Source: a bacterium
GTDB taxonomy: Bacteria > Patescibacteriota > Minisyncoccia > Sungbacterales > GWA2-42-14
NCBI GenBank assembly: GCA_030649305.1
Contig: JAUSFV010000006.1
Span: 32-64,031, forward strand
Reading direction: 5' to 3'
Length of the DNA: 64,000 bases
The stretch's first letter is position 1. Every line of letters starts with the position of its first letter. Made by a program: the position numbers and the translations under genes. Positions 35,976 through 51,479 of this stretch are shown in pieces. The notes beneath the pieces are model-generated. The model ran no database searches. It was not told where the DNA came from and saw only the letters and a program-made list of their open reading frames with translations.

Positions 35976-36006
35976 TATTCTTTTTGAGACCATGAGGCGG
36001 CAATGC
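35976..36006. repeat. Partial copy (5' ~30 nt) of the A/B element
   Basis: UUCUUUUUGAGACCAUGAGGCGGCAAUGC matches the copy-B 5' end; followed by a 44-bp perfect hairpin. Confidence 0.4.
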
Positions 36007-36022
36007 AACACGATGCTCTAAT

Positions 36023-36066
36023 AAAAATGTAGCTATATTTGCGATAGCAAATATAGCTACATTTTT
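36023..36066. terminator. 44-bp perfect hairpin (20-bp stem AAAAAUGUAGCUAUAUUUGC, loop GAUA) with A/U runs built in; bidirectional terminator-like
   Basis: Exact inverted repeat seen in the sequence. Confidence 0.55.
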
Positions 36067-36118
36067 CTAAAACAACCAAACAAAAAAGGCGTTTCTCTGA
36101 CGCCCTTCCAAATTCCGA

Positions 36119-36239
36119 TATGTTCTTTCGAGACCATGAGGAGGCAATCCAGCCCGGTCTCCGACCGCAGTCGGAGTGGATTACCGACGACTGAACGAAG
36201 TAGGGCGCCCGGCCGAGCGAGCGTGTCGAGAAAGAACAT
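36119..36239. ncRNA. Candidate structured RNA/REP-like element, copy B (~120 nt), immediately 3' of ftsZ
   Basis: Closing helix AUGUUCUUUC/GAAAGAACAU; inner GAGACC/GGUCUC and CUCCGACCGCAGUCGGAG. Homologous to copy A with compensatory changes. Confidence 0.35.
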
Positions 36240-36252
36240 GGCGAAATCTACA

Positions 36253-37359
36253 CTATTTCTTCCGACGGAGAAACGCCGGCACCGAATCCCACTCTGACTC
36301 TTCCTCCTGTGCGGGTTTCACCGCTCCATTCATGGGCTTCACCGGAGACGCTATGCCGTTCGTCGCGGGCTTGCGCAATTCGGGTGCCACCGCGCGCGCG
36401 CCATTCCCGTTAAATCCTGTTGCAATAACCGTAATTTTAATTTCGCCTTTTTTCAGGCGCTCATCATGCACCGCGCCGAAAATCAACTTCGCGTTCGTAT
36501 CAACAGATTCAGTAATAATTTTCGCGGCTTCATTAATCTCCCACATGGTCAAATCCGGACCGCCTGATACGTTAAAAAGCACTCCGCGGGCGCCGTTGAT
36601 GGAAATATCAAGCAGGGGCGAGCTGATTGCAGCCTGTGCCGCCTGCATATGCCGGTTCTCGCCCGACGCAATGCCAACCCCCATCAAAGCGCTTCCCGTA
36701 TCCTCCATCACCGCGCGCACATCCGCAAAATCAACATTCACCAACCCCGGCATCGTAATCAAATCTGAAATTCCGCGAACGGCATGTTGTAACACCTCAT
36801 CGCAAATTCTGAACGCAGCAAGAAGCGGCGTATTCCGCTCAATCATATTTAAAATCCGATCATTCGGAATCGTAATTAAAGCGTCCACCTTGTCTTTTAA
36901 TCTCGCCCAACCCTCCTCGGCAATTTTTCCTCTTTGATTTCCTTCAAAGGCAAAGGGCTTTGTCACAACCGCAACCGTTAAAGCACCCGATTCTTTCGCG
37001 GCCTCCGCGACAATGGGTGCCGCACCCGACCCTGTTCCTCCTCCAAGTCCGCATGTAATAAAAACCATGTCAGAGCCCTTCAGCGCCTCGTGAATTTCGT
37101 CGCGGTTTTCTTCCGCCGCCTGCCGCCCGATTTCGGCATTCATCCCCGCCCCCAACCCTTTCGTCAGATTTTTTCCAATGTGGATTTTGCTGGTCGCTTT
37201 ATTGTGATGCAATGCCTGCGCATCCGTATTAATCGCAATAAAATTCACGCCGTGAATTTTGGCGTCCATCATACGGGTGATGGCAGACCCACCGGATCCG
37301 CCCACGCCCACAACTTTTATTTTCGCGTAGGTTTCTATGTCGGGTTTTACTTGTGGCAT
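36253..37359 (-). CDS. ftsZ: Cell division GTPase FtsZ
   Basis: GGGTGSGAAPIVAEAA tubulin signature; NTDAQAL; start taken at MPQVKPD…. Confidence 0.9.
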   Translation of the reverse strand: MPQVKPDIETYAKIKVVGVGGSGGSAITRMMDAKIHGVNFIAINTDAQALHHNKATSKIHIGKNLTKGLGAGMNAEIGRQAAEENRDEIHEALKGSDMVFITCGLGGGTGSGAAPIVAEAAKESGALTVAVVTKPFAFEGNQRGKIAEEGWARLKDKVDALITIPNDRILNMIERNTPLLAAFRICDEVLQHAVRGISDLITMPGLVNVDFADVRAVMEDTGSALMGVGIASGENRHMQAAQAAISSPLLDISINGARGVLFNVSGGPDLTMWEINEAAKIITESVDTNAKLIFGAVHDERLKKGEIKITVIATGFNGNGARAVAPELRKPATNGIASPVKPMNGAVKPAQEEESEWDSVPAFLRRKK

Positions 37360-37373
37360 TTCCTTAAGCTCAT

Positions 37374-37404
37374 TAAGTAAATTAAGCACGTTAAGTAAAT
37401 TAAG
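37374..37404. repeat. Tandem direct repeats TTAAGTAAATTAAG (x2) with flanking inverted TTAAGCA/TGCTTAA motifs upstream of ftsZ
   Basis: Two 14-mers 17 nt apart, then GCTTAACTTGCTTAA…CTAACTTGCTTAACTCGCTTA. Confidence 0.5.
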
Positions 37405-37488
37405 TCCCGCATGCTTAACTTGCTTAATACGCCTAACTTGCTTAACTCGCTTATTTTAATGTATTCTTTCCCGAAATCCGAGGCAATA

Positions 37489-37517
37489 TTGACAAAAAAA
37501 ACGCCATATGCTACACT
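37489..37517 (+). promoter_or_regulatory. Sigma70-like promoter TTGACA-N17-TACACT upstream of prcB
   Basis: AATATTGACAAAAAAA… with 17-nt spacing, ~60 nt before ATG 37575. Confidence 0.45.
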
Positions 37518-37574
37518 ACCCGTAACATACGGCTCTTCGAAAACCGAATAAAAACCCAACACCAGGAGGCAAAA

Positions 37575-38432
37575 ATGAATATTCCAGCAGAGTTTAGAAA
37601 CTTCTCACCATCTTCACTACTTGAAACACCCGAACTCCAAAACTTTATCAAAAATCGTCAAGCCGGACTGAATGAGATGCCTCGTGACATTCTTGAGAAA
37701 ATGGCGGGAATCATCCGCAGTTCCACCGTGCTCACGGGCATCACGTTTGATGGCGGGGTTATCGCGGGCGCCGATGGGCAGTCAACCGATACACGGGGAC
37801 TTGAAATCGCTGATGACCAAGCCCCGAAATTGCACCAGGTGGCGCCACATACCGTTATCGGCATGACGGGCTCGTCCGCCCAATGCGATGAACTAGCGCG
37901 AATCATTGAAGAGGTGCTACGCGTTGATGAAGCAATCAATCAATTCGCAGACACCCCCCTTACCACAGAAGGCACCGTAGGAAGAGTGTCTATGGTAGTC
38001 AGACAAAATCTTCCTCTCGTCGCCTACTATGGCCTTATCGCCATCCCCCTCCTTACCACCATCAACAAGGAAACCGGGGAAGGAAAGGTGTATCATTACG
38101 ATGCCGTGGGAGGATATTCTGACGCCACCGAAGGATTTTGGGCTGATGGTTGCGGGGGCCCGAATGCGAAAGGAATATTCCGAGGAAACACAAAAGATAT
38201 TGCGAAGGGACTTTCAAAAGACGCCGCCATCATGCTTACCGTACACGCGCTCGCAAAGACATGCCATGTCAATGCCGGATGCGGAGGTAAGCTCCTCGTA
38301 AAAGTCATCACCAAGCAAGACGGCATCGTTGATGTATCTCAGGACCGAATCGCGGAAATCTGCAAAGAACTCGGTCCGCGGGTGATCGGAACATATGGCC
38401 TTGGATACCCCTACGCAACCCCCAGGGAATAG
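37575..38432 (+). CDS. prcB: 20S proteasome beta subunit (PrcB-like, with ~49-aa propeptide)
   Basis: Mature N-terminus TVLTGITFDGGVIAGADGQ (Thr1 Ntn-hydrolase). C-terminal …DGIVDVSQDRIAEICKEL resembles actinobacterial PrcB …DGAVDVPESRIAEL. Confidence 0.75.
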   Translation: MNIPAEFRNFSPSSLLETPELQNFIKNRQAGLNEMPRDILEKMAGIIRSSTVLTGITFDGGVIAGADGQSTDTRGLEIADDQAPKLHQVAPHTVIGMTGSSAQCDELARIIEEVLRVDEAINQFADTPLTTEGTVGRVSMVVRQNLPLVAYYGLIAIPLLTTINKETGEGKVYHYDAVGGYSDATEGFWADGCGGPNAKGIFRGNTKDIAKGLSKDAAIMLTVHALAKTCHVNAGCGGKLLVKVITKQDGIVDVSQDRIAEICKELGPRVIGTYGLGYPYATPRE

Positions 38433-38444
38433 GAGGAAAAAATC

Positions 38445-39236
38445 ATGAGACTGTTCCCGGAAAGCGACTATCAATCAAAATCGAACCGAGACAGGTTCGA
38501 ATCGCTCAGAGGCATAATCGAAAATCAACCGCCCCTTGTAGCACTTGCGTATAAAGAAGGACTTTTATTCATGAATTTCGGCACACGACATGATTTCCGC
38601 CGAATTGCTCCGCTCAACGAAGGGAATACCTTAGTATTCGGAGGCGTTGGCAACCGAGGCGATATAAAGGATCTCCACACGAATGGATGGGTAAACCCGG
38701 CAATGCGCCGCCTCTATGCGTGCCTCCCCAGCAATTCAAAAGAGATATCGGGGCGCGTCATTAGCGACGGAATCGCGGATCTTATGCGTTCACGATTTAG
38801 CTTTGTATTCTCGGGACCTTTCATCGCCGAAATTTTCATTGCAGAAGTCGGAGAATCAAATAACGTTATCTACCATATCCAGACCGACGGAAACACATGT
38901 ACCCACGATGATTTCCTCGCGTTGGGAGCCAGAAACTACTGCGCCAATAATCCCCTCCGTTTAAGAGTCGTGAGAAGCGCTGTGGACTCAAGTGTGGGGA
39001 CACAAATCCAAGAAGCAAAGGAAAAAATTGAACTGTGCGCGATTGAACAATACCTTGAAGAGAATCCGCCAAACCCCTCTCAGAGCCTTGAAGAGGCGCT
39101 GAAACTCGGTGATGTTTTGAAAGAATTCTATGTCCGAGAAATCAGCGGAGAGGAAGATCCGGAAAAGACAAAGATGCCTGTTAGCTACAACATTCTCGAA
39201 AGAGGAAAGGGGCTCTTTGTCCATTCAGACAAATAA
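38445..39236 (+). CDS. prcA: 20S proteasome alpha subunit (PrcA-like)
   Basis: …RDRFESLRGIIENQPPLVALAYKEGLLFMNFG… aligns with mycobacterial PrcA …[32 protein letters not shown]…. Confidence 0.75.
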   Translation: MRLFPESDYQSKSNRDRFESLRGIIENQPPLVALAYKEGLLFMNFGTRHDFRRIAPLNEGNTLVFGGVGNRGDIKDLHTNGWVNPAMRRLYACLPSNSKEISGRVISDGIADLMRSRFSFVFSGPFIAEIFIAEVGESNNVIYHIQTDGNTCTHDDFLALGARNYCANNPLRLRVVRSAVDSSVGTQIQEAKEKIELCAIEQYLEENPPNPSQSLEEALKLGDVLKEFYVREISGEEDPEKTKMPVSYNILERGKGLFVHSDK

Positions 39237-39322
39237 TTTAAATGAAAAAGCCCATCCCATATGCGATGCATAGGGATGGGCTATTTATTTTGAGAATTTT
39301 ATCTTTATCACCTTATCTTTAT

Positions 39323-40063
39323 CTAAAAACGGGATTGCTCTTTGAGACCTTTCTTATCCGATTTCGCGCTCAATTCCGCCTTCGCTTTCTCTAAAAAGAA
39401 GTATGTCGCAAGGAGGTTTTCTTTATATTCCTCGTAGGTCGCGCTGTCGGCAAAACCATACTGCACGATTTCTTCCCCCTTCAGCAGGGTCGGCTTCTCC
39501 CGATTGCTTAAATCGGCGAGGTAGCGCGCCTTGTCAAAAGGCTTATCAGCGCGCGAACAAAAGGATGCAACGCGATCGGCAACATTCTGTATCATTTCCC
39601 GAGCACCCTCATCGTGTTCTTTTTTTGCTTTATCGAGTTCTTCCTGCGACGCATACTGATGTTCCGGAACGAATCTCGGAAACCCGAGCGCAAAAAAGGT
39701 ATCCGGCGTAACATACCGCTTCTCGCCTGCCGCAAACACCAGCTGGCCGAAGAGGGCTTGCGTGCCAATTGCAAACGTGTCAACCGGACGCGGAGAAGTT
39801 TTGATGGCTGATACAATCTGAAACGCGTCAAAAAGCGGCGCGTCCACCTGCTTGATCACAAGCTTTGTCCGAACAAAACCCTTCGGAACCACAATGCTCG
39901 GGGAAGCCAATGGCTCTGTCAGACCAAACCAATTCAGTCGGGTTACCAGAGAATTTGCAGAAGGATTCAAAACTGGCCCCACGGGAAACTGGAGTTCCGA
40001 ACCAAGTTCGGTAATCCAATAACCCTTCAAATCATCGAGCCAACTATCGCCCTGTCGCTCCAT
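39323..40063 (-). CDS. Hypothetical protein in the Pup-proteasome locus, 246 aa
   Basis: GAGGAGG RBS; no recognisable domain. Confidence 0.45.
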   Translation of the reverse strand: MERQGDSWLDDLKGYWITELGSELQFPVGPVLNPSANSLVTRLNWFGLTEPLASPSIVVPKGFVRTKLVIKQVDAPLFDAFQIVSAIKTSPRPVDTFAIGTQALFGQLVFAAGEKRYVTPDTFFALGFPRFVPEHQYASQEELDKAKKEHDEGAREMIQNVADRVASFCSRADKPFDKARYLADLSNREKPTLLKGEEIVQYGFADSATYEEYKENLLATYFFLEKAKAELSAKSDKKGLKEQSRF

Positions 40064-40083
40064 GTTTTCTTCCTCCTCTTTGA

Positions 40084-40803
40084 TTACTGCGACCGCCCCG
40101 GCTTCATATCCTTGATGGCGGGGGCACCCCACGATGTATACAACTTCTCAGCCATTCGAATACCCTCTTGTTCGCCCTTTGTCTCGGCCTGAAACATCGC
40201 TCGCATCAAGGCACCCAAGAAAATAGCCTTTTTCGTTTTCATGTCCGGTGCGCGTTCAATCATGGGCCACAAAATCCCTAACACGCGCGCAATAAGATTT
40301 GGATTATATTGCGTCCAAAATGCCGCCTTAATCTCTTCTTTGTCCCGAGAAGACAAACCGTGTAAAAATATTTCGTTTGCCTCCTCCATGGATACCGCGG
40401 GCCAAGAAAAGTAAGGAACCAAAGCGTCGTTCGTAATAATCTTATGCATTGCATAAAGTTGAGAACCCGCAACATGACTAAATGAATCAATTACGCCGAG
40501 TAATTCGTGTGCCGCATCTGAAACCGATGGCCGCTTCTGGTCAAGCGACACGATAACTGGTCGCAATACCAGATCAACCGCAGAACGATTTGCATCGGTA
40601 AACACATGAGCACTCGCATGATCCATGCGCCGTTCCGCATCAGACATCTCAACATTCGTCCAAAGATTCAAAAGAACGTTCTCAAAAAATGCGGAGCGCT
40701 CTTCCGAAGAAGACAGCTCACCAAGATGCTTGAGAATATCGCGCGAGCGCTCCCCCGCCGTATCATACGTTCCGTGAATAATTTCCTCGGCTCGATTTTT
40801 CAT
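40084..40803 (-). CDS. Hypothetical protein in the Pup-proteasome locus, 239 aa
   Basis: AAGGAGAAAAGGGGGAG RBS; no recognisable domain. Confidence 0.45.
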   Translation of the reverse strand: MKNRAEEIIHGTYDTAGERSRDILKHLGELSSSEERSAFFENVLLNLWTNVEMSDAERRMDHASAHVFTDANRSAVDLVLRPVIVSLDQKRPSVSDAAHELLGVIDSFSHVAGSQLYAMHKIITNDALVPYFSWPAVSMEEANEIFLHGLSSRDKEEIKAAFWTQYNPNLIARVLGILWPMIERAPDMKTKKAIFLGALMRAMFQAETKGEQEGIRMAEKLYTSWGAPAIKDMKPGRSQ

Positions 40804-40830
40804 TGTTCTCCCCCTTTTCTCCTTTGTGAG

Positions 40831-41310
40831 TTATGAATCCGGATTCGTTTCTTGTCTTCGTGTTGCTTCAAACATGCGCGGGTCTTCCTCGCGAAATTTC
40901 TCAAACAACTTCTGATATTGAGGTGTCTCCCGCATACGTTCAACATCGGGATACGCGCACATAACGCCTCGTTGCGGAGCAACATATCCCTCGCCCCCCA
41001 TGAGTCCGAGCACCGGATCTCGATCTTGATCAATGAGTATAATCGTATGCTGGCGTTCTTTGGTTTCTGGATTAAAACGCGTAATTTTTTCAAAATTACC
41101 GGAAGACCACGAATACTTATGAAAGGGGCACCGCTCACATGCCGAAAGGTCAATAATCCACCCAGGCGCTCCGTTGGTAATCTCTTTTGGACAAGGAATG
41201 CCAAGTGATGAGGTCGCATTATCAACCACCGAAATAGAAAGAGGGTCTTCACCATTTCTCGTATTGATGGCGCGCTCAAGCCGCCCGATCGCATCTACCA
41301 CATCAGCCAT
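40831..41310 (-). CDS. Hypothetical Cys-cluster protein in the Pup-proteasome locus, 159 aa
   Basis: AAGGAG RBS; contains CPKE…CERCPFH. Confidence 0.45.
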   Translation of the reverse strand: MADVVDAIGRLERAINTRNGEDPLSISVVDNATSSLGIPCPKEITNGAPGWIIDLSACERCPFHKYSWSSGNFEKITRFNPETKERQHTIILIDQDRDPVLGLMGGEGYVAPQRGVMCAYPDVERMRETPQYQKLFEKFREEDPRMFEATRRQETNPDS

Positions 41311-41534
41311 TTTGTTTTCTCCTTTTCAAAGACCAGCCGGAAATTAAAAAGAGGGTAGTGTTTACGCGCCCAAATCTAATTCCCGCCTACGTGCTAGGAA
41401 TAGACTGGGGGTAACAACTACCCTTGCCCTTTTCTTTCCGCCTTGTAAGTTACCCGCATTGTAGCAAAACCGAAAAAATCTGTCAATAGTTCGCGGACAA
41501 ATAAAAAGGGGCTCAAAGCCCCTTGAAGATATAG

Positions 41535-43151
41535 CTATACTCCATCCGGAAAACGAACGCGTTGAAACGCCCCCGGATTCGGATCAAACGGATCCTCATC
41601 ATATTCGGTAACGACATCGGGCGACCAACCCCTTCCGGACTTAGGATAATATCTGAGATAATTCCAGCCCACTTCCATAAGATCCGCGTTCGTATGCCCC
41701 CGGAGTGCTGCAATCCTCTTATCCCGCGCTTCCGCGCGCGTTCCCGAAGGAGCATGATTTTTCGCGTGCAGAATCTCCGATTCCGAAACAATCAACGCGA
41801 CAAGCCCTTTTTGTACGAGTTTATAATACAGACCCTTATCGCGCCGCACATCATGAAAAAAATTATCAAAAAACTTCATACGGCCCCATGCATCCGTTTT
41901 GCTCGTAGTTCCGCTTTTCGTAATAATTTCAAGCGGGAGTATCGGAGCGCTTTCAAACGAATATCCGTTTCGTTCCATGTCGGGCAGAATCCAGTAATGC
42001 AATTTCGCGGCCCACCCGACGTAGGGCGCTAAAATTTCCGCGCATTCGAGGGGAGAGCGCGCCCGCTCAAACGCTTCAATCAAAAAAATATATTTTTGAA
42101 GGCCGTCCTCTTCCTCGTTGCTCCAGAGAACCGGGGAACCGCTCCGCGCCGCCTCCCGAAACAGCGATGCCTTGTACGCAAGAATCGGCTCAAGATACAG
42201 CTTCCGATGCAAACGTACCGCGTCATACTCCTCATTCTGAAAACGAAATGTTTGATGCTCGCTTCCCCACCACATAGTCCGTGTTTGCATGTATGCCAAT
42301 TCGCGCGAAAAGCGCCCCGAGTCTTTTTTATAATCCTCTTTGCGAAGCACCCGACCCTCAATCATGCGAAGCAGGATCCCGAGAATCACGTTGGGTACAT
42401 ACATCTGCCATTCGCACATTGATGAATCAAGACCGATAATCTGAAGGCGCCAGTACTCGCGGCGGTCCGCAAGCGGCTCATCGCACAAAAGCACCATGGG
42501 GCGCATTGGTGCCGTGGATGATGTTCCCGAAAGCCGGTCCACAAACGGAGCGCGCTGGGAGAGCGAATACAAAAGACGCCCCCCATTGGTAACCCATACC
42601 AGCCCCGACCCCGTCATCCACGAGCTTGAAAAAAGAAACGGACCGAGAATGGGTAATGCCTCATCATAGGACACTTCGCGAATATTCAGGGGAAGATTAT
42701 AGTGATTCCCCCACGAAACATAGTGCGTACGAGAACGATAATCCCGGGTGTCCGGAGACCAGCGTTCGGAATTCATGTTGGTATTATTTTTAAAAAACGT
42801 ACAGCCCCCGAAACGCGCGAATTTGGCACGAATGCGCGATGCGGGCGATCCCTGTATATTCAGCGTTGCGGCAATATCCTCAAGAATACGCTCGCCCGCT
42901 TTTCCCCATGCAACAAGGTCGTAGACACTTCCGCATTCGGGAGTCGAAATTTCAAAATGATTTCCGGTATCCCAATATGCCCGTCCGCCGTTTGCGAGAA
43001 AATCTGATTTTACGGGAAGAATCCGCGCCCCATCCCTCATCTGCGGCCGCAAGGATTCCACGGCGTCATGAAGTTTAGCCCAATTATCCCCAAAAATTTC
43101 CATCGGAAAAAAAGCGGTTTCGTTCTCCATACCCCAGATACGCTTTTGCAT
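41535..43151 (-). CDS. pafA: Pup ligase PafA (Pup_ligase/PafA-Dop family)
   Basis: MQKRIWGMENETAF… and …FLANGGRAYWDTGNHFEISTPEC… correspond to PafA MQRRIMGIETEFG… and …[27 protein letters not shown] RBS. The PafA-versus-Dop assignment is by N-terminal similarity only. Confidence 0.6.
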   Translation of the reverse strand: MQKRIWGMENETAFFPMEIFGDNWAKLHDAVESLRPQMRDGARILPVKSDFLANGGRAYWDTGNHFEISTPECGSVYDLVAWGKAGERILEDIAATLNIQGSPASRIRAKFARFGGCTFFKNNTNMNSERWSPDTRDYRSRTHYVSWGNHYNLPLNIREVSYDEALPILGPFLFSSSWMTGSGLVWVTNGGRLLYSLSQRAPFVDRLSGTSSTAPMRPMVLLCDEPLADRREYWRLQIIGLDSSMCEWQMYVPNVILGILLRMIEGRVLRKEDYKKDSGRFSRELAYMQTRTMWWGSEHQTFRFQNEEYDAVRLHRKLYLEPILAYKASLFREAARSGSPVLWSNEEEDGLQKYIFLIEAFERARSPLECAEILAPYVGWAAKLHYWILPDMERNGYSFESAPILPLEIITKSGTTSKTDAWGRMKFFDNFFHDVRRDKGLYYKLVQKGLVALIVSESEILHAKNHAPSGTRAEARDKRIAALRGHTNADLMEVGWNYLRYYPKSGRGWSPDVVTEYDEDPFDPNPGAFQRVRFPDGV

Positions 43152-43221
43152 GCAATCTCCTCTTTGATAAAGAACCAACCTGCTTTCACAATATCAGAAT
43201 CGGCGCATAAGGGAAATATTG

Positions 43222-43255
43222 ACAAAAAAAATAATGAGGCCTAAGAGGCCTCATT
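43222..43255 (-). terminator. Intrinsic terminator after pup (minus strand)
   Basis: AAUGAGGCCU…AGGCCUCAUU hairpin followed by U8 on the minus strand. Confidence 0.65.
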
Positions 43256-43305
43256 ACTATAGAAAAATCTGTTGCGTATTATTAGTAATTAGTTATCTGT
43301 TCGGG

Positions 43306-43521
43306 TTATTCTCCGCCCCGCTGAACGTAGCTCTTCACAAATTCTTCAGCGTTTTCTTCCAAAACTTCATCAATTTCATCCACTAAATCATCCAAATCCT
43401 TCTTTAATTTTTCGGTCTTTTTCTTTTTCTCTTCCTCTTTCGTATCGTCTTTTTTTGGAGTTTCCTCAACCTCTTTTTTCTCTTCGGGTTTTTCTTGTTT
43501 CTTCTTTTGTTCCTGACTCAT
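43306..43521 (-). CDS. pup: Prokaryotic ubiquitin-like protein Pup (C-terminal GGE)
   Basis: …DLDDLVDEIDEVLEENAEEFVKSYVQRGGE is near-identical in pattern to M. tuberculosis Pup …LLDEIDDVLEENAEDFVRAYVQKGGQ. 71 aa, Lys/Glu-rich disordered N-terminus, strong RBS. Confidence 0.85.
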   Translation of the reverse strand: MSQEQKKKQEKPEEKKEVEETPKKDDTKEEEKKKKTEKLKKDLDDLVDEIDEVLEENAEEFVKSYVQRGGE

Positions 43522-43607
43522 GTTTTTTCCTCCTCCCTAAATCAATTTTGTTATACAAAATTAATCGGGCGACCAATCGGCAAAGCCGATTGGTTTAGCC
43601 TTTCTTG

Positions 43608-45257
43608 CTATTCATCATATTCAGGATACGGAGTACGATGGACAGAATAAATGCTTCCGCATTTTTTCGCAATACCCGCGCCAAGCGCACGCCGCAAAAA
43701 TTCATGCCGATCCGCGCCGAGAAGAAGTGGTGCATACTCCGCTTCGGTCATCAGAGGATTTGAACAATCAATTTCATAATATGCGTTTTCCTCCGGAACC
43801 CACACGTCTATCTCCGCCCAATGCCATCCCTGCACGTGCGGCTCAAACAAACGCTGTACCGCGACCTGAAAGCCGGAGCGCGTCGGCGGGGATTCAGAGA
43901 CCGCGCGCGCGATATCGGCATCGCTAATAATCCGATGCTCCCGATGCTTTTCTTGAACGAATTTTTGAAAAAATATGCTTTTTGCGGGGTCGATATTTCC
44001 ATAGCTCCGGTCAAGGCTGATTGCTTTATGCGAACAGAAAGAATCAATCTTGCCGCGCGCCATCAATTCCTCTATGACACCGCGTTTCGTCACCCAATCC
44101 AACATCCCGATACAATCACCGGAATTTCTCCGAAGTTTTTTAACAACATCAAGCCCGAGCGCCACCGCTTCATCATACTCGGGTTCCCGAATACCATACT
44201 CCGCACAATACCTCCCCATAAGCGTTATATATTCTTCAAGAAGATCAAGGGGTAAACAGGATTCTTTGCGATTTCGCATAGAAATTTTTTCTTGAAACGC
44301 GAGGTCCCGCGAAATCTTCCAAAACGCTCTCACGGGATCCGTCAGTATAAACTGACCGCCGAGAAATTCGTCCTCAAGCATCTTTAAATGAATTTCGGTA
44401 AGGGCAATCGTAAGAAAATAGGCGGTCTCACACATGTTTTGATCTGCTGTAATCACATGCAGACGGCGATACAGCGCTGCATCCGCATACGGCACGTCGC
44501 GCGTATTCATTAGGGGCCGTTTGCTTAGTGTGGGATATGTCTCCCCTAGTCCCATCGTACCGATGCCCGCCAACTCCGAAAAAAAATCCGCGCGCTGAGA
44601 AATCTGGAAGTCGCACCACGGGAGCCCCGTCACAAGCCGATTATGGCTTCCCACCTTTCCTTGGCCGTTAAAAATCTGACGGAGTACGAGCCACGGAATC
44701 GTACGTTCAATCAAGGCGCCCCACGGCACGACACGCCGCATAAGATAATTATCATGATGCGCATAGCTTACCGAAAAATCGGCGAGCAGCTCAGGAGATA
44801 CATCAAGAAACGTTTCCCCGCGGCCCAGCGCAAAACCATAATTATTTTTTGATAACAAAAAACCGGTTCCCGCTTCGCGATGGCGTTCTGTCAAAAACCG
44901 TATGATGCGGTCAGCAGCTTCATAGTGCGCGAGTTTCTCTTTGGGTGTGCGGCAAAGGGCGATTGAGAGTTCCGGATGCGCCCCGTCCACATACAATCGC
45001 GCGCCATTCGCAAGAAGAATATTTGTTTCGCGCCACGAGCGTTCCGTAAAATAGGTATGGCTATGATCTTCCCCGTCCGCAAGGCGCGGCCGCGAATCCC
45101 ACAAAGAAAAACTTCCGCCCGAAAGCCACTCGGGCCTGATACGCGACACAAACTGCCACGCGAGATCAGCGGGACTCTGTGAAGAATCCGGCGAACTGAT
45201 CCCATATTCTATTTCGCTTCCCCCATATTTTGGTATCGAGCGCGATTCACGGGGCAT
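43608..45257 (-). CDS. dop: Dop (depupylase/deamidase of Pup) of the PafA/Dop family
   Basis: …[14 protein letters not shown]… and …[19 protein letters not shown]… …[31 protein letters not shown]… parallel Dop RIMGTEVEYGISSP…, [47 protein letters not shown]. Confidence 0.65.
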   Translation of the reverse strand: [549 protein letters not shown]

Positions 45258-45371
45258 ATTTCCTCCCCTTTCTTTATATGTATATATGTAAAGCAACTTA
45301 TTTCATGCTATCACGGCCACTCCAATGAAAAAAGCCCACGACCTCGGTCGGGGGCTTTTGGATGTAATGAG

Positions 45372-47351
45372 TTATAGGTAATGTCCGACCGAAACTGTCT
45401 CAACTTTCTTATCCTCCCCTTCTCGGGGAAGAATACGAACATTCACGATTCGGCCCTTCTGCTTGCCGATAACACTGGCCCACTCTTGGGGGTTCGTAGT
45501 GTTAGGCAAGTCTTCGTTCTCTTGGTATTCTTTAATCGTCGCGTCACGAAAATCAGAGAATGTCAGCCCCTTCTTGCCTCCCGCAATCAATCGTTTGACC
45601 GCGCTTTTCTTTGCGCGAGTCATAATGGACTCAATGATAGCGCCGGACATAAAATGCCGGAAGTGCATGGTTTCCTGTTTCCCATCCGCATAGGTAAGTT
45701 CGACAAATCTGCTCCATTTTTTAGAATCAGGGGTAAGCCCCCAAATTTCAATCGCGGTCCGCTGAATAAAATATTTTGCCATATCCTCCAAAAGAGGGGT
45801 GCCGTTTGTATCACGACGAATAGGAAACTTCATGATTTTGAGGTCAACATCATTTCGCGCATCATTCGTGGGGTCGCAATCGTAAAACTTACGCGGATGT
45901 CCGTTACGGTCTGCCGGAATATAGTTTCCCTCTGTATCATAGAATTTCGGATTCACATAATCAGAACCAACAAGACAAAATGGAAGTTCCGGCACGCAAT
46001 AAATCTTGAGAATTTCCTGAATGCCGCGAAAATCAGGACGGTCAATTTTAATTTTTACGTCAAATCGTCCGGGCCGCAGAACCGCAGGGTCAATCAAATC
46101 CTGCCGGTTGGATGCACCAATCACGATGACGTTTTTCAAACCCTCAACACCATCAATCTCCGCCAAAAACTGCGGTACGATGGTTGACTCAACGTCCGAA
46201 GAAATTCCCGAACCGCGCGTCCGAAACAAACTGTCCATTTCGTCAAAGAAAATAACGACGGGAGAGCCGTCTCCTGCCTTCTCACGCGCCCGCGTAAAAA
46301 TATCACGAATTTTACGCTCGGTTTCACCAACCCACTTCGTAAGAAGTTCCGGACCTTTGATATTAATAAAGTAACCCCGAACGGATTGTCCCGTTTTTGC
46401 GGCAATCTGTTCGGCCAGAGAATTCGCAACCGCCTTTGCGATAAGTGTTTTACCGCATCCCGGAGGACCATACAACAGTACGCCCTTGGGCGGTGCCAGT
46501 TTGTGTTCCTTGAAATGTTCCGCGTAGAGATAGGGAAGTTCAAGCGCGTCGCGAATTTCTTCAATCTGTGCCCCAAGTCCGCCGATGTGCGCGTAGGTAA
46601 TATCCGGCACCTCCTCCAGGAGGAGGTCTTCGGTATCACTCTTTGGAAGCTTCTCAAGTACGAGACCTGAGCGCGCGTCAAATAACAGATGGTCGCCCTC
46701 TTTCAGAACGACGTCTTTCAAAGAATCCGCAATCTCAACAACCCGCTCCTCATCCTGACGCACTTCAATCTGCACACGCCCATCATTCAGGCGGCTTTTC
46801 ATCGTGACTACTTCGCCCTGCCCGTCAAAGCCAAGCGCCTCAACCACATTGAAGGCCTCATTCAAAATAAGTTCCTGGCCCCTCCGAAGAGACCTGCCGT
46901 CAAGAGAAGGATGCAGATTAACTTTCAACTTTCTACCCGCCGCATAAATAACGGCTGTGCCGTCTTCATTCAACAAAGAAAAAATACCGTAAGAATTAGG
47001 AGGCGCTGAAAGCTTTTCCACTATCTCGCGGAGTTCCACGATCTCTTTTTTCACTTCCTGCAAGATCTCGGTGAGTTTCTGGTTTTGAGCAAAAGCCGTT
47101 ATATTTTGTTCAAGCAACGGCTTTTCCAATCTTGCTAATTCTTGCTCCTGCGCCACAATCTGTTCGCGAATCCGCTCGGCCTTTTCCAAAGTATCGCCCC
47201 GGGCATCCGCGCGTTTATGCAGTCTTCTTAATTCCGCGTGAAGTTCTTGAAGTCGTATATGAATCGCGTGGAGCTTCGCGCCAAACGCGTCAAGCGATTG
47301 ATTGCGCGGATCTTCATTCGGCATACGCCACCTCATTTCGTCTGTCAACAA
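45372..47351 (-). CDS. arc: Proteasome-associated AAA ATPase ARC/Mpa
   Basis: N-terminal coiled coil, OB domains, Walker A GVLLYGPPGCGKTLIAKAVANSLA identical to Mpa; ends …VGHYL, cf. the Mpa C-terminal GQYL docking tail. Probable start at Met 47324 (AGGTGG RBS). Confidence 0.8.
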   Translation of the reverse strand: MLTDEMRWRMPNEDPRNQSLDAFGAKLHAIHIRLQELHAELRRLHKRADARGDTLEKAERIREQIVAQEQELARLEKPLLEQNITAFAQNQKLTEILQEVKKEIVELREIVEKLSAPPNSYGIFSLLNEDGTAVIYAAGRKLKVNLHPSLDGRSLRRGQELILNEAFNVVEALGFDGQGEVVTMKSRLNDGRVQIEVRQDEERVVEIADSLKDVVLKEGDHLLFDARSGLVLEKLPKSDTEDLLLEEVPDITYAHIGGLGAQIEEIRDALELPYLYAEHFKEHKLAPPKGVLLYGPPGCGKTLIAKAVANSLAEQIAAKTGQSVRGYFINIKGPELLTKWVGETERKIRDIFTRAREKAGDGSPVVIFFDEMDSLFRTRGSGISSDVESTIVPQFLAEIDGVEGLKNVIVIGASNRQDLIDPAVLRPGRFDVKIKIDRPDFRGIQEILKIYCVPELPFCLVGSDYVNPKFYDTEGNYIPADRNGHPRKFYDCDPTNDARNDVDLKIMKFPIRRDTNGTPLLEDMAKYFIQRTAIEIWGLTPDSKKWSRFVELTYADGKQETMHFRHFMSGAIIESIMTRAKKSAVKRLIAGGKKGLTFSDFRDATIKEYQENEDLPNTTNPQEWASVIGKQKGRIVNVRILPREGEDKKVETVSVGHYL

Positions 47352-47430
47352 GCTTTTTTTAATGTATCACAGCAAATTCATACGCGCAACTAATTGAAAA
47401 AACGGCTTATTTGTGATATCTTTGGGCAAG

Positions 47431-47502
47431 GCCCCCGTAGCTCAACGGATAGAGCAATCCCGTCCTAAGGGAGAGATGGGAGTTCAATTCTTCCCGGGGG
47501 CA
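47431..47502 (+). tRNA. tRNA-Arg (anticodon CCT)
   Basis: Hand-folded: acceptor GCCCCCG/CGGGGGC, D-arm GCUC-AACGGAU-GAGC, anticodon loop GUCCUAA, T-arm GGGAG-UUCAAUU-CUUCC, discriminator A; CCA not encoded. Confidence 0.7.
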
Positions 47503-47532
47503 TTGATATGCTATAATACTTGTATTCACATC

Positions 47533-48606
47533 ATGGCTACATCTTACGAACAACAAATTATAGATGCCATAAAAAAAGCCCTCCCCGCGGTGGTCAGTAT
47601 TGTGGTAAGTAAAGACCTTGAAGATATTAAGAAGAGTAACCCCTTCGGATATTTTCAGCTTGGCCAGGAAGCTCCCGCAGGAGAAGAAATTCCGGAATCG
47701 GCACTTGATGAGCTCCCGCGCACGAAAGAAGGAAAAATCAAAGTCGGCGGCGGCTCCGGCTTTATTGTTTCACACGACGGACTCATTTTGACAAATAAAC
47801 ACGTCGTAATGGACCCAAGCGCTGAATACAGCATTATTACCGCAACTGATGACCTCTATCCCGCGCGCGTACTCGCGCGCGACCCGATTAATGATGTCGC
47901 AATTCTCAAAATTGAAGCGGAAAAAGAAACCTTGCCCGTCATTCCCATCGGCGACTCAAATACGGTAGAACTTGGACAAAGCGTCATTACCATCGGAACG
48001 GCTCTCGGCGAATTCCAGAATACCGTCTCCACCGGCATTGTATCAGGCCTCTCGCGATTTATCACCGCCGTCACGGATTTGATGGGCCATCAGGAACGCC
48101 TGCGCGGCCTTATTCAAACGGATGCCGCGATTAACCCGGGAAACTCTGGGGGGCCCTTAGTGAATTTAAAGGGTGAGGCCATTGGCATTAATTCGGCTGT
48201 GGTATTTGGCGCGCAAAACATCGGCTTTGCCATTCCCATCAATAAAGTAAAAGAAGACCTTGATGCCTTTCGTAAATTCGGAAAAATCTCAAAACCCTTT
48301 CTTGGCATCCGCTATCTTTTGATCAACAAGGCCATCCAGAAAAAATTCAACCTGCCCGTTGATGCAGGCGCCATGATCCTGCGCGAGCACGGACCGGATT
48401 CGCACGGCATCGTTCCGGGAAGCCCCGCCGAAAAAGCTGGCCTCAAGGACTACGATATTATCCTCGCGTGCAACGGCAAGCTCCTCTCAGAAAAAACGAC
48501 CCTGGAAGATATCCTGGATTCGGTTGCCATCGGCGACACGGCTTCGCTCACCATCCTCCGAAACGGAAAGGAGGCTGAATTAAAAATGATGGTAGGAGAG
48601 CGGTAA
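47533..48606 (+). CDS. HtrA/DegP-family serine protease with a PDZ domain
   Basis: …GSGFIVSHDGLILTNKHVV… …GNSGGPLVNLKGEAIGINS… catalytic triad context plus a C-terminal PDZ. Confidence 0.8.
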   Translation: MATSYEQQIIDAIKKALPAVVSIVVSKDLEDIKKSNPFGYFQLGQEAPAGEEIPESALDELPRTKEGKIKVGGGSGFIVSHDGLILTNKHVVMDPSAEYSIITATDDLYPARVLARDPINDVAILKIEAEKETLPVIPIGDSNTVELGQSVITIGTALGEFQNTVSTGIVSGLSRFITAVTDLMGHQERLRGLIQTDAAINPGNSGGPLVNLKGEAIGINSAVVFGAQNIGFAIPINKVKEDLDAFRKFGKISKPFLGIRYLLINKAIQKKFNLPVDAGAMILREHGPDSHGIVPGSPAEKAGLKDYDIILACNGKLLSEKTTLEDILDSVAIGDTASLTILRNGKEAELKMMVGER

Positions 48607-49064: not shown

Positions 49065-51479
49065 ATGCGCTTTTCTTCCTCACAATTTTCCGCAGCGGTC
49101 CTGCTTGATCGCGCCCTCCCCGAATCCCTCCTCCGCACCCTCAAAATCTTTTCGGGGATTTTTGCGCTAGGAGCGCTTGCCGTGGATATCCAAATGGGCG
49201 CGCAAAATGTCGCGCTCGGCATTTTCCTTGTTAGCGCAAGCTTCTTTTTTACCTTTTCCCTTCTTTCCCAATTCGTCCAAAGCCAAAAATCAAATCTCCC
49301 CCGCATTCTTCCGCTGTCCCTCGGAAGTGCGGAGGAAGAAACAAAACGAATCACGCTCTGGCGCAACTATTGTGATTTTGAAAGTACAGCCATCGTCTCT
49401 CGCGCGTCCGCGCTTTCAGTTTCATCACTCGGGCTTCAGCTTCTGAAAAGCCATTTTGGCCGCTTTTTTCTTGAACGAACCGGCATACAAAAAGAGGCAT
49501 TTCTTACCGCACTTTCGGATACTTCTTCACTTGATGAAAGCCGGTTTGCCGAAGCCCTGCTTCGCGAAGCCATTCACGCGGGGCATCCAGCGATACGCCC
49601 CTCCGACATCCTTACGGTTCTCACCCGCGCGTCGGATCCGTTGAAAAAGCTTATGTCCGGCGCAAACCTTCAGGAAAAAGATTATCCGGCGCTTGCGCAA
49701 TGGTATGAAATCGGAAAAGAACATACTCGCCGCCGCTCGTTTCTCGAAACGCTTATTGCCGCACCGGGCATCGGAAAGACATGGGCATTCTCCTATACCC
49801 CGCTTCTTGACCAATTTTCCAAAGAACTAAACGTAGCGGCGGGGAAAGAATACCTCCATATTGCCGCGCATAAAAAAGAAATAACATTTCTTGAAGAAGC
49901 GCTCTCAAAATCGGAGAACGCGAATGCCATTCTCGTGGGAGAACCGGGTGTCGGGAAAACAACCATCATCAAAGGACTTGGAAAGCGAATTCGAGAAGGA
50001 CGAAGTGCCGCGGCACTCAACTATAAACGCTTGGTACTCATTGACATGAATGCGGTGATTTCGGAAAAAAATTTCGGCGACCTTGCGGGGATTCTCACGG
50101 CAATCCTACGGCAGGCCGAAAGTGCAGGAAACGTCATTCTCGCGATAGACAACATAGAACAATATCTTATTCCGGGGTCCCCCGTAAATGTGTCCGAAAT
50201 TCTCTTGCCATTCTTAAAATCATCCCGCATCAACATCATCGGAACGGCAACGCGGGGGGGCTATGAAAAATCAATAGCGCAAAATTCCCTCATGCGCTCT
50301 CTTTTTGAAGTCGTTTCCGTTGAAGAACCCGGCAAAGAAATGATGATTACGATTCTCGGGGACATTTCTCTCCATCACGAAAAACAATACGGAGTGCGCG
50401 TGCGATATCAAGCGCTCAAAAAAATCTATGAATACGCCGCGTCCTTCTCCTCAGATATTCCCTTTCCCGAAGCCGGACTTGAGGCGCTTGAAGAAATATT
50501 TGTTGCATCCGCAAAAAGGGGGGGCTCTATCGGAGAAGAAGAAGTATCCTCGATCTTTAGTGAAAAAAGAAAAGCCCCGATTGGGGTACCCGAAGAAAAA
50601 GAAAAGGTGATGCTACTTTCTTTAGAAACGGAGCTTGGAAAACACATTGTTGACCAGCGCGGAGCGCTTCTGGCTCTTGCGAACGCCTTACGCCGCGCGC
50701 GGGCCGGAGTCGTATCGCGCAACAAACCCCTTGGCACGTTTCTTTTTCTCGGCCCCACGGGAGTCGGAAAAACCGAGACCGCAAAAGCGCTTGCTCGACA
50801 TTACTTCGGAGGGGAGAACGCCATGGTACGCTTTGATATGTCCGAATATCAAAATCCGGAAGATACGGCGCGCCTCATTGGGTCGGAACAGGGGGGTATT
50901 GCGGGCGCCCTTTCCTCCGCAGCGCACGAACATCCGTTTTCTTTGATGCTCTTTGATGAAATTGAAAAAGCACATCCGAATATCCTGAATCTCTTTTTGC
51001 AAATTCTTGATGAGGGGCGCCTCACGGATGCGTTTGGAAAAACCGCGTCTTTCAAAAACGCAATTCTCATCGCGACCTCAAACGCGGGTGCCGAATTTAT
51101 CCGGCAGGAACTTTCGCATGGAAGAAATAACTATGAATCACTCCAAAAAGACCTTGTTGATTTCGTGCTCCGCGAAGGCATATTCAAACCGGAATTCCTG
51201 AACCGCTTTGACGGCGTTATTGTATTCAAGCCACTCTCGCCGGAAGAGGTCAAAGAAGTCGCGCGCCTCATGCTTGGAGCCCTTGGAGAGCGCCTGAACG
51301 AACAGGGATACGAACATGAAATAACCGAGGAAACGCTTAGAACTGTTGCCGCAAAAGGATATAACGAAACGTTTGGTGCCCGCGAATTGCGGCGCGTCAT
51401 CCAGGACGATGTGGAATCACGCATCGCGCGGGAAATTCTGGAGGAAAAATATCAGAAAGGAGACACGATACAAATATAA
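49065..51479 (+). CDS. Clp/Hsp100-family AAA+ ATPase (two nucleotide-binding domains) with an N-terminal hydrophobic segment
   Basis: ILVGEPGVGKTTIIKGL (D1 Walker A) and FLFLGPTGVGKTETAKALA (D2 Walker A) plus a ClpB_D2-small-like C-terminus. Confidence 0.75.
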   Translation: MRFSSSQFSAAVLLDRALPESLLRTLKIFSGIFALGALAVDIQMGAQNVALGIFLVSASFFFTFSLLSQFVQSQKSNLPRILPLSLGSAEEETKRITLWRNYCDFESTAIVSRASALSVSSLGLQLLKSHFGRFFLERTGIQKEAFLTALSDTSSLDESRFAEALLREAIHAGHPAIRPSDILTVLTRASDPLKKLMSGANLQEKDYPALAQWYEIGKEHTRRRSFLETLIAAPGIGKTWAFSYTPLLDQFSKELNVAAGKEYLHIAAHKKEITFLEEALSKSENANAILVGEPGVGKTTIIKGLGKRIREGRSAAALNYKRLVLIDMNAVISEKNFGDLAGILTAILRQAESAGNVILAIDNIEQYLIPGSPVNVSEILLPFLKSSRINIIGTATRGGYEKSIAQNSLMRSLFEVVSVEEPGKEMMITILGDISLHHEKQYGVRVRYQALKKIYEYAASFSSDIPFPEAGLEALEEIFVASAKRGGSIGEEEVSSIFSEKRKAPIGVPEEKEKVMLLSLETELGKHIVDQRGALLALANALRRARAGVVSRNKPLGTFLFLGPTGVGKTETAKALARHYFGGENAMVRFDMSEYQNPEDTARLIGSEQGGIAGALSSAAHEHPFSLMLFDEIEKAHPNILNLFLQILDEGRLTDAFGKTASFKNAILIATSNAGAEFIRQELSHGRNNYESLQKDLVDFVLREGIFKPEFLNRFDGVIVFKPLSPEEVKEVARLMLGALGERLNEQGYEHEITEETLRTVAAKGYNETFGARELRRVIQDDVESRIAREILEEKYQKGDTIQI

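Follow-up and report, generated by a model that had tools for sequence, protein, structure and literature searches.

What is the role of three genes that lie between pafA and prcBA in a divergent Pup-proteasome locus? The genes, here called A, B and C, are part of a stretch of 64,000 nucleotides (nt) of contig JAUSFV010000006.1 (GenBank assembly GCA_030649305.1), referred to below as the window. We propose, with a probability of roughly 40%, that A-B-C is a self-contained, lineage-restricted operon that would encode accessory components of ATP-dependent proteolysis and not enzymes. The link to proteolysis is real because C belongs to a protease family: profile comparison places C in the ClpP family as a new, non-catalytic variant that is very rare and is encoded inside the Pup-proteasome locus. 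The three genes are as follows:

40831..41310, minus strand: gene A, 159 aa, first gene of the operon
40084..40803, minus strand: gene B, 239 aa
39323..40063, minus strand: gene C, 246 aa, with an ATG start at 40063

The A, B and C genes and their transcription signals

The coordinates and minus-strand direction of A, B and C are as an initial annotation of this DNA had given them. As that annotation had also stated, the genes are tightly spaced (gaps of 27 nt between A and B and 20 nt between B and C), and each is preceded by a canonical Shine-Dalgarno (SD) sequence, with anti-SD duplex energies of -8.9 kcal/mol for A, -10.9 kcal/mol for B and -11.9 kcal/mol for C. Among all ATGs in the window, 5.7% reach -8 kcal/mol and 2.6% reach -10 kcal/mol; three successive SDs of this strength are far beyond chance. 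The SD energies of the trio are on a par with those of pup, dop, prcB and prcA. With 14 confident genes of the window as the training set of a codon-usage model, we found that the codon log-odds of A, B and C were above zero solely in the called frame (0.22-0.25 bits per codon), a coding signal that at least matches those of prcB and prcA. Because of the SD energies and the frame-specific codon signal, we conclude that A, B and C are real, native genes with host-like codon usage.

SD and coding-frame evidence also ruled out two competing gene models. The first is a 164-aa open reading frame (ORF) at 40800..41294 that overlaps A and is a shadow frame. The second is the public NCBI annotation of C (MDO8600164.1, 269 aa), which starts at a GTG at 40132; the SD energy there is only -2.7 kcal/mol, versus -11.9 kcal/mol at the ATG at 40063. 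The GTG start would add the stretch 40064..40132 (minus strand) and make C overlap B by 49 nt. An independent gene call likewise preferred the ATG at 40063. In the public record, the products of the trio are MDO8600164-166 (locus tags Q7R73_00905-00915).

The trio had been described as embedded between pafA and prcBA and co-directional with arc-dop-pup-pafA. Its position stands, as does the strand that it shares with arc, dop, pup and pafA; prcBA, however, is on the plus strand and convergent with the trio, and a transcript shared with pafA is contradicted by the signals that flank the three genes:

41498..41524 (hairpin 41524..41506), minus strand: predicted intrinsic terminator directly 3' of the pafA stop codon, sequence AAGGGGCTTTGAGCCCCTT with a T-run after it; 8-bp stem with 5 G-C pairs and a T-rich tail
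41458..41486, minus strand: predicted sigma-70-type promoter, TTGACA-17-TACAAT, with 11/12 matches and an extended -10 TG
39245..39290, both strands: predicted bidirectional terminator hairpin, inverted repeat AAAAAGCCCATCCC-N14-GGGATGGGCTATTTATTTT with a T-run on each strand

The promoter was the top match in a promoter scan of 11 kb. It is kept in L002, a contig that carries a homolog of A (see below), and L002 also has a hairpin and T-run at the position equivalent to the pafA terminator. At the other end, the hairpin at 39245..39290 is common to the convergent A-B-C and prcBA units. Because there is a terminator after pafA and a promoter before A, we conclude that A-B-C is, by prediction, its own transcription unit and not an extension of the pafA transcript; judged by its sequence signals, the operon looks well expressed.

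Gene C and the ClpP family

The initial annotation had listed the three genes as being of unknown function. That none of their products resembles anything known is wrong for C, which we identify by profile comparison as a homolog of ClpP, a member of a protease system other than the proteasome. By itself, C matched the Pfam family CLP_protease with E=0.004 (17.4 bits, under the 20.2-bit cut-off) and gave weak ClpP matches in PDB; BLASTP detected no match between C and E. coli ClpP. An exhaustive HMMER search with C among 1.84 billion cluster representatives returned one relative, P0006, a protein of 252 aa that is 29-32% identical to C (E=2.9e-5) and that matches CLP_protease with 42.3 bits (E=9.4e-11). 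A profile of C and P0006 together gave 93 PDB matches at E<=1, and 60/60 of those listed were ClpP (best E-value, 1.8e-6). Against three canonical ClpPs, hhalign gave the combined profile a probability of 95% (E=3.5e-8) and C alone one of 45% (E=2e-4). Among phages and plasmids, the only tblastn matches of C were to Bacillus phage ClpP genes (E=2e-4), and the PVDTFAxG core of C is also present in phage ClpPs of IMG/VR. C shares with ClpP (S14, PF00574) the core that extends from the central helix to the C-terminal YG[FL]xD motif, whereas its N-terminal 65 residues and its 35-residue C-terminal tail are unrelated. From these comparisons, we conclude that C is a genuine but extreme ClpP homolog, an outlier of the family.

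The similarity of C to ClpP does not extend to the catalytic residues. The columns of the active site align as follows:

Nucleophile Ser: GxAASMG in ClpP; GTQALFG in C (Leu104); GINGSFG in P0006 (Ser retained)
Catalytic His: MIHQP in ClpP; ALGFP in C (Gly); RLQKP in P0006 (Gln)
Catalytic Asp: RD[RN]F in ClpP; absent from C (EKPTL); absent from P0006
Oxyanion motif: SPGG in ClpP; APLF in C; APML in P0006

These columns of C were assigned identically by hhalign and by the multiple alignment. Since the catalytic residues of C are all replaced, the alignment shows that C should be unable to act as a classical serine peptidase. P0006 retains, of the triad and the oxyanion motif, the Ser alone. C and P0006 also have features in common that canonical ClpP lacks, namely FGQxxFA, GFAxS and an N-terminal GxW...L.S.L.F. 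These common residues suggest that C and P0006 represent a maintained non-catalytic subfamily and not random decay.

ClpP-fold subunits without a triad have been described before. The ClpR proteins of cyanobacteria and plastids are such subunits, which selection maintains as structural parts of the protease ring (PMC6508832, PMC7966870). C resembles ClpR in being, by sequence, a ClpP homolog without the triad. However, ClpR is clearly ClpP-like and coassembles with known ClpP partners, whereas C is far more divergent and is without a known partner; the uncultivated bacterium that encodes C is not photosynthetic, and the gene stands with two orphans beside proteasome genes.

Gene A, its leader and gene B

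The protein encoded by A is soluble and acidic, with a C-x17-C-x2-C-x2-H ... H ... C pattern. A word-index protein search identified two homologs, both from one sequencing run, that are 79% (contig L001) and 72% (contig L002) identical to A. All four Cys residues (C40, C58, C61 and C118) and both His residues (H64 and H88) are invariant in A and the two homologs, in keeping with the initial description of A as a Cys-cluster protein. The ratio of nonsynonymous to synonymous divergence (dN/dS) of A is 0.09-0.15 at a dS of ~1.3, indicating strong purifying selection. No match to A was found in Pfam, NCBIfam, PHROGs, PDB, or phage and plasmid records, nor did Pfam and NCBIfam reveal a recognizable DNA- or RNA-binding domain. 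The sole PADLOC line for A, a 9.9-bit match to Cas12e, was read as noise. By these searches, A is a new protein family.

The genomic context of A was compared across its three lineages. The partial contig L002 has the order pafA 3' end, terminator, same promoter, same leader, A homolog, and start of a B-like ORF; its pafA 3' end is 49% identical to that of the window over 41 aa (E=5e-9). L001 begins inside the leader and is cut before any upstream gene. Its A gene is separated by 32 nt, which include a strong SD, from a gene for full-length Lon (TIGR00763, 650 bits), and a terminator appears only after Lon, giving a two-gene A-Lon operon. Conserved co-occurrence with pafA in relatives, which was among the checks that the initial annotation had proposed, was borne out in part: pafA-A-(B) recurs in L002, but A pairs with Lon in L001. 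Overall, A adjoins pafA in 2/3 lineages, L001 having no visible Pup context, and it is followed by protease-family cargo in the window (B and the pseudo-ClpP) and in L001 (Lon). In each lineage A comes first, behind the leader. By sequence and gene order, these comparisons show that A forms the module's conserved core and has a link to genes of protease families. The Lon of L001 (605..3319) has an extra N-terminal Cys4 zinc-ribbon-like segment (CPKPGC...CMKC) before the usual N-domain; A has no similarity to the N-terminal part of this Lon.

Upstream of A, conservation and folding delineated the following elements:

41311..41451, minus strand in the window (272..418 in L002; 1..98 in L001): conserved 5' leader of ~140 nt (141 nt), from conservation and predicted fold
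~41443..41335, minus strand: long imperfect hairpin in the leader, from the predicted fold
~41332..41318, minus strand: predicted short SD-masking hairpin, in which a UCUUU tract pairs with the SD at 41324..41319

From promoter to ATG, the window and L002 align with 145 matches, 28 mismatches and 11 gapped positions. An 80-nt core of the leader is 96% identical between the two, whereas the synonymous sites of the adjacent coding sequence are 39% identical, and the stretch from the pafA stop codon to the promoter is not conserved. By this comparison, the leader is under selection, being conserved far above the neutral expectation. Its minimum free energy is -49.7 kcal/mol on the mRNA strand (z, -3.1) and -40.5 kcal/mol on the opposite strand. 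L001 keeps the apical hairpin, in which a U-A pair has become C-G as the one compensatory change, and for 3/3 lineages folding predicts a short hairpin between a YCUUUG tract and the SD. The computed accessibility of the SD shifts modestly with temperature. For the predicted structure, the conservation signal is strong and the structural proof, from three sequences, is weak.

Other explanations for the leader were rejected. A small ORF was discarded because its frame in the window is not maintained in L002. A known RNA or repeated regulon element was discarded since no Rfam 15 family matched the leader (E<=1 in 36000..48000; none at gathering score in the whole window, L001 or L002) and nhmmer found the element once, with no second copy in the 64-kb window. 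We regard the leader as a candidate for a new cis-regulatory RNA.

B encodes a soluble protein with no Cys and 8 His. It had no detectable homolog or domain in Pfam, NCBIfam, PHROGs, PADLOC, PDB, the word-index protein search, or tblastn against phages and plasmids, and it did not match ClpP-type profiles. The ORF at the place of B in L002 starts with MEHRAEEI (MKNRAEEI in B) and overlaps the stop codon of A. By these searches, B is an orphan. The remote-homology check that the initial annotation had called for therefore left A and B without a known family and placed C, by profile comparison, with ClpP.

All three genes are restricted in distribution. Word-index protein searches with A, B and C returned only the genes themselves and the two A homologs. 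Searches of 185,579 GTDB species genomes with the A profile and PafA, and of JGI metagenomes with the A profile and a 24-nt leader pattern, found no further loci, and the A profile had no match among viral contigs. When A, B, C and the genes of L001 were compared all-against-all by BLAST with the proteins of the window, no matches emerged. The sequencing runs from which the relatives came are SRR22388351, SRR22388041, SRR29054608 and SRR13727527. Near-identical copies of the locus occur in other samples (L003 and L004), but the 11 differences between the window and L003 in 6.7 kb are too few to gauge selection on B and C. With no homolog of B, two of A and one distant relative of C, the genes are lineage specific, as had been suspected, and belong to no housekeeping family. 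A phage, defense-system or plasmid origin of the trio was rejected: there were no PHROGs matches, PADLOC gave noise only, and A and B had no tblastn match among phages and plasmids.

The Pup-proteasome locus and the proposed function of the operon

The genes around the trio are as follows:

45372..47351, minus strand: mpa/arc
43608..45296, minus strand: dop
43306..43521, minus strand: pup, whose product ends in GGE
41535..43178, minus strand: pafA, start probably the ATG at 43151
37575..38432, plus strand: prcB
38445..39236, plus strand: prcA
47548..48606: HtrA-type protease
49065..51479, plus strand: ClpA/ClpB-like double-AAA ATPase, 804 aa

Hence, a span of 14 kb includes mpa, dop, pup, pafA and the 20S genes together with genes for HtrA and a ClpB-like ATPase. 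The locus (36253..47351) is atypical: arc, dop, pup and pafA follow in this order, prcBA is inverted and convergent, and there are terminators after pup and pafA. The Mpa homolog ends in GHYL and not in GQYL. PafA and PrcA are very divergent (130 bits versus a cut-off of 551, and 31 bits versus 139, respectively). Host G+C content is ~47%. The double-AAA ATPase has a hydrophobic, transmembrane-like N-terminal segment and no match to the Clp_N domain, and appears from its sequence to be an unusual membrane-anchored Clp-family unfoldase beside an HtrA-type protease.

Several noncoding features of the locus were also recorded. The ftsZ-prcB intergenic region contains arrays of TTAAGY and GCTTAAC (37364..37457) with 9- and 18-nt periods and inverted orientation, just upstream of the prcB promoter TTGACA-17-TACACT (37489..37517); from their layout, these repeats could form a large hairpin or act as an operator array. 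Downstream of ftsZ, at 36023..36066, is a perfect 20-nt inverted repeat with a 4-nt spacer, AAAAATGTAGCTATATTTGC / GCAAATATAGCTACATTTTT, which is probably a terminator or a protein-binding palindrome; a weak Rfam microRNA match at this position is spurious and caused by the inverted repeat. A near-identical 20-nt segment, GG[CA]AATATTGACAAAAAAAA, occurs on the plus strand at 37482..37501 (prcB promoter) and at 43212..43231 (pup-pafA spacer). The latter copy shares positions with the T-run of the pup terminator, and its direction would be antisense to pup.

In the reading that we favor, C would be a non-catalytic ring or scaffold subunit of the ClpP type, as ClpR is in mixed ClpP/R cores, or else a gating or competing ring. 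A would be a zinc-binding regulator or adaptor of proteolysis, possibly feeding back on its own leader, and B a lineage-specific partner. The leader would act in translational control because its U-rich tract can pair with the SD. Adjacency to pafA and prcBA would reflect clustering of proteostasis genes and not physical association with the proteasome; as judged from family membership and gene order, the demonstrable link of the trio is with ATP-dependent proteolysis in general, not with the Pup-proteasome.

A number of observations weigh against this proposal. Clp ATPases dock to ClpP through an IGF/IGL-type loop, and the only Clp-type ATPase in the window is without one (no [LIV]G[FL] between TSNAG and FKPEFLNRFD). 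P0006 stands alone on a 3-kb contig, with neither an A or B gene nor a protease neighbor. With three A lineages and two C-type proteins in the searched databases, synteny statistics are anecdotal. B has no homolog, and neither A nor B has a recognizable fold. AlphaFold2 models were unusable both for C (single sequence; pLDDT, 36) and for A (three-sequence alignment; pLDDT, 39). The structure of the leader draws on three sequences and one compensatory change.

The trio might instead be a set of unrelated neighbors, that is, young orphans including a decayed ClpP paralog, whose function is unconnected with proteolysis or minimal. The extremely narrow distribution, the absence of any catalytic residue from C and the orphan status of B would all fit, as would the separate transcription unit; moreover, the genome is densely packed, so adjacency weighs little. 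This explanation sits poorly with the strong purifying selection on A (dN/dS, ~0.1) and with conservation of the leader and promoter well above the neutral rate. It also leaves aside the strong SDs and native codon usage of 3/3 genes, the ClpP structural core kept in C and P0006 at 29-32% identity, and the presence of a protease-related gene next to A in 3/3 lineages. We consider it rather unlikely.

The initial annotation had suggested that the three proteins are novel proteasome-associated factors. In this case, the binding partner of A, B or C would be Mpa, the 20S core or the pupylation enzymes. A sevenfold ring of C might, for instance, cap or gate the alpha ring, and A and B might help in assembly or act as adaptors for substrates. 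Sevenfold symmetry is common to ClpP rings and the alpha rings of proteasomes. The trio lies between pafA and prcBA, shares a terminator with prcBA and equals pup and prcBA in SD strength. The genes are lineage specific, one belongs by profile comparison to a protease family, and the order pafA-A-B is kept in L002 although synonymous sites are near saturation. The trio also occupies the slot immediately downstream of pafA, which in Actinobacteria is that of pafBC, accessory genes that are dispensable for degradation itself (PMC8223512). PafBC thus exemplifies genes downstream of pafA that degradation does not need, and A, B and C differ from PafBC in having no HTH, WYL or WCX domain and in having their own promoter, whereas PafBC is cotranscribed with pafA. 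The statement that none of the three resembles PafB/PafC or Bpa/PafE was correct, with no Pfam or NCBIfam match to HTH/WYL or Bpa at E<=1. A ring-forming, non-enzymatic 20S partner such as Bpa/PafE would be the boldest reading of C, but there is no sequence similarity, and GQYL, the C-terminal proteasome-docking motif of Bpa (PMC8223512), is absent. Indeed, as had been noted, none of the three ends in GQYL (the C-termini are NPDS in A, GRSQ in B and QSRF in C), nor do they have an HbYX-like C-terminus. Together with the terminator after pafA and the promoter of the trio, the pairing of A with Lon in L001 and the location of P0006, which is not beside any proteasome gene, this makes a direct association with the proteasome improbable in our judgment.

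As a further alternative, the operon could be a stress-response unit in which A is a zinc-dependent, nucleic acid-binding regulator of protease genes that autoregulates through the leader, with B and C as cargo; the leader would then switch translation, either in the manner of a thermometer or through a bound protein. Genes for Lon and Clp proteins are textbook members of the heat shock regulon. A and its leader are conserved together while the cargo varies (B and C in the window, Lon in L001), 80 nt of the leader core show 96% identity, and the hairpin between the U-rich tract and the SD is predicted in 3/3 lineages. As in fourU and ROSE thermometers and autoregulatory leaders, a stable 5' hairpin is predicted to be followed by a weak U-rich:SD hairpin upstream of protease-type genes. 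Unlike the thermometers, however, the leader matches no thermometer or riboswitch in Rfam, has ~80 nt of its long hairpin conserved, which is beyond what a thermometer needs, and has a weak predicted temperature response, with a modest change in computed SD accessibility. A regulator of this kind is also difficult to reconcile with an A protein that has no recognizable DNA- or RNA-binding domain, and with no second copy of the leader or hairpin in the 64-kb window, where no regulon is visible. For these reasons, we view a stress-response unit as doubtful at best. Finally, it is very improbable that A-B-C is a new proteasome accessory module in which C forms a dead ClpP-like ring that either acts at the 20S alpha ring, by docking, gating or competition, or connects the Clp and proteasome machineries, with A and B as adaptor or regulator and a new leader class as the switch.

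To our knowledge, work on the Pup-proteasome has been almost entirely in Actinobacteria, where no extra partners other than PafBC, Bpa and Cpa are known. In the locus described here, from an uncultivated bacterium, three other genes occupy the position downstream of pafA, and one of them, C, has by our alignments a ClpP-type sequence without ClpP chemistry. Even if the genes are unrelated neighbors, the annotation of C is corrected, in both its family and its start codon, and the structure of the operon is laid out. A and its leader would be a compact, strongly selected protein-RNA pair beside protease genes and are a candidate for a new regulator. Should C act together with the proteasome, or with machines of the Lon or Clp type, it would represent a new mode of regulating compartmentalized proteases and would exemplify a pseudo-protease found elsewhere than in cyanobacteria and plastids.

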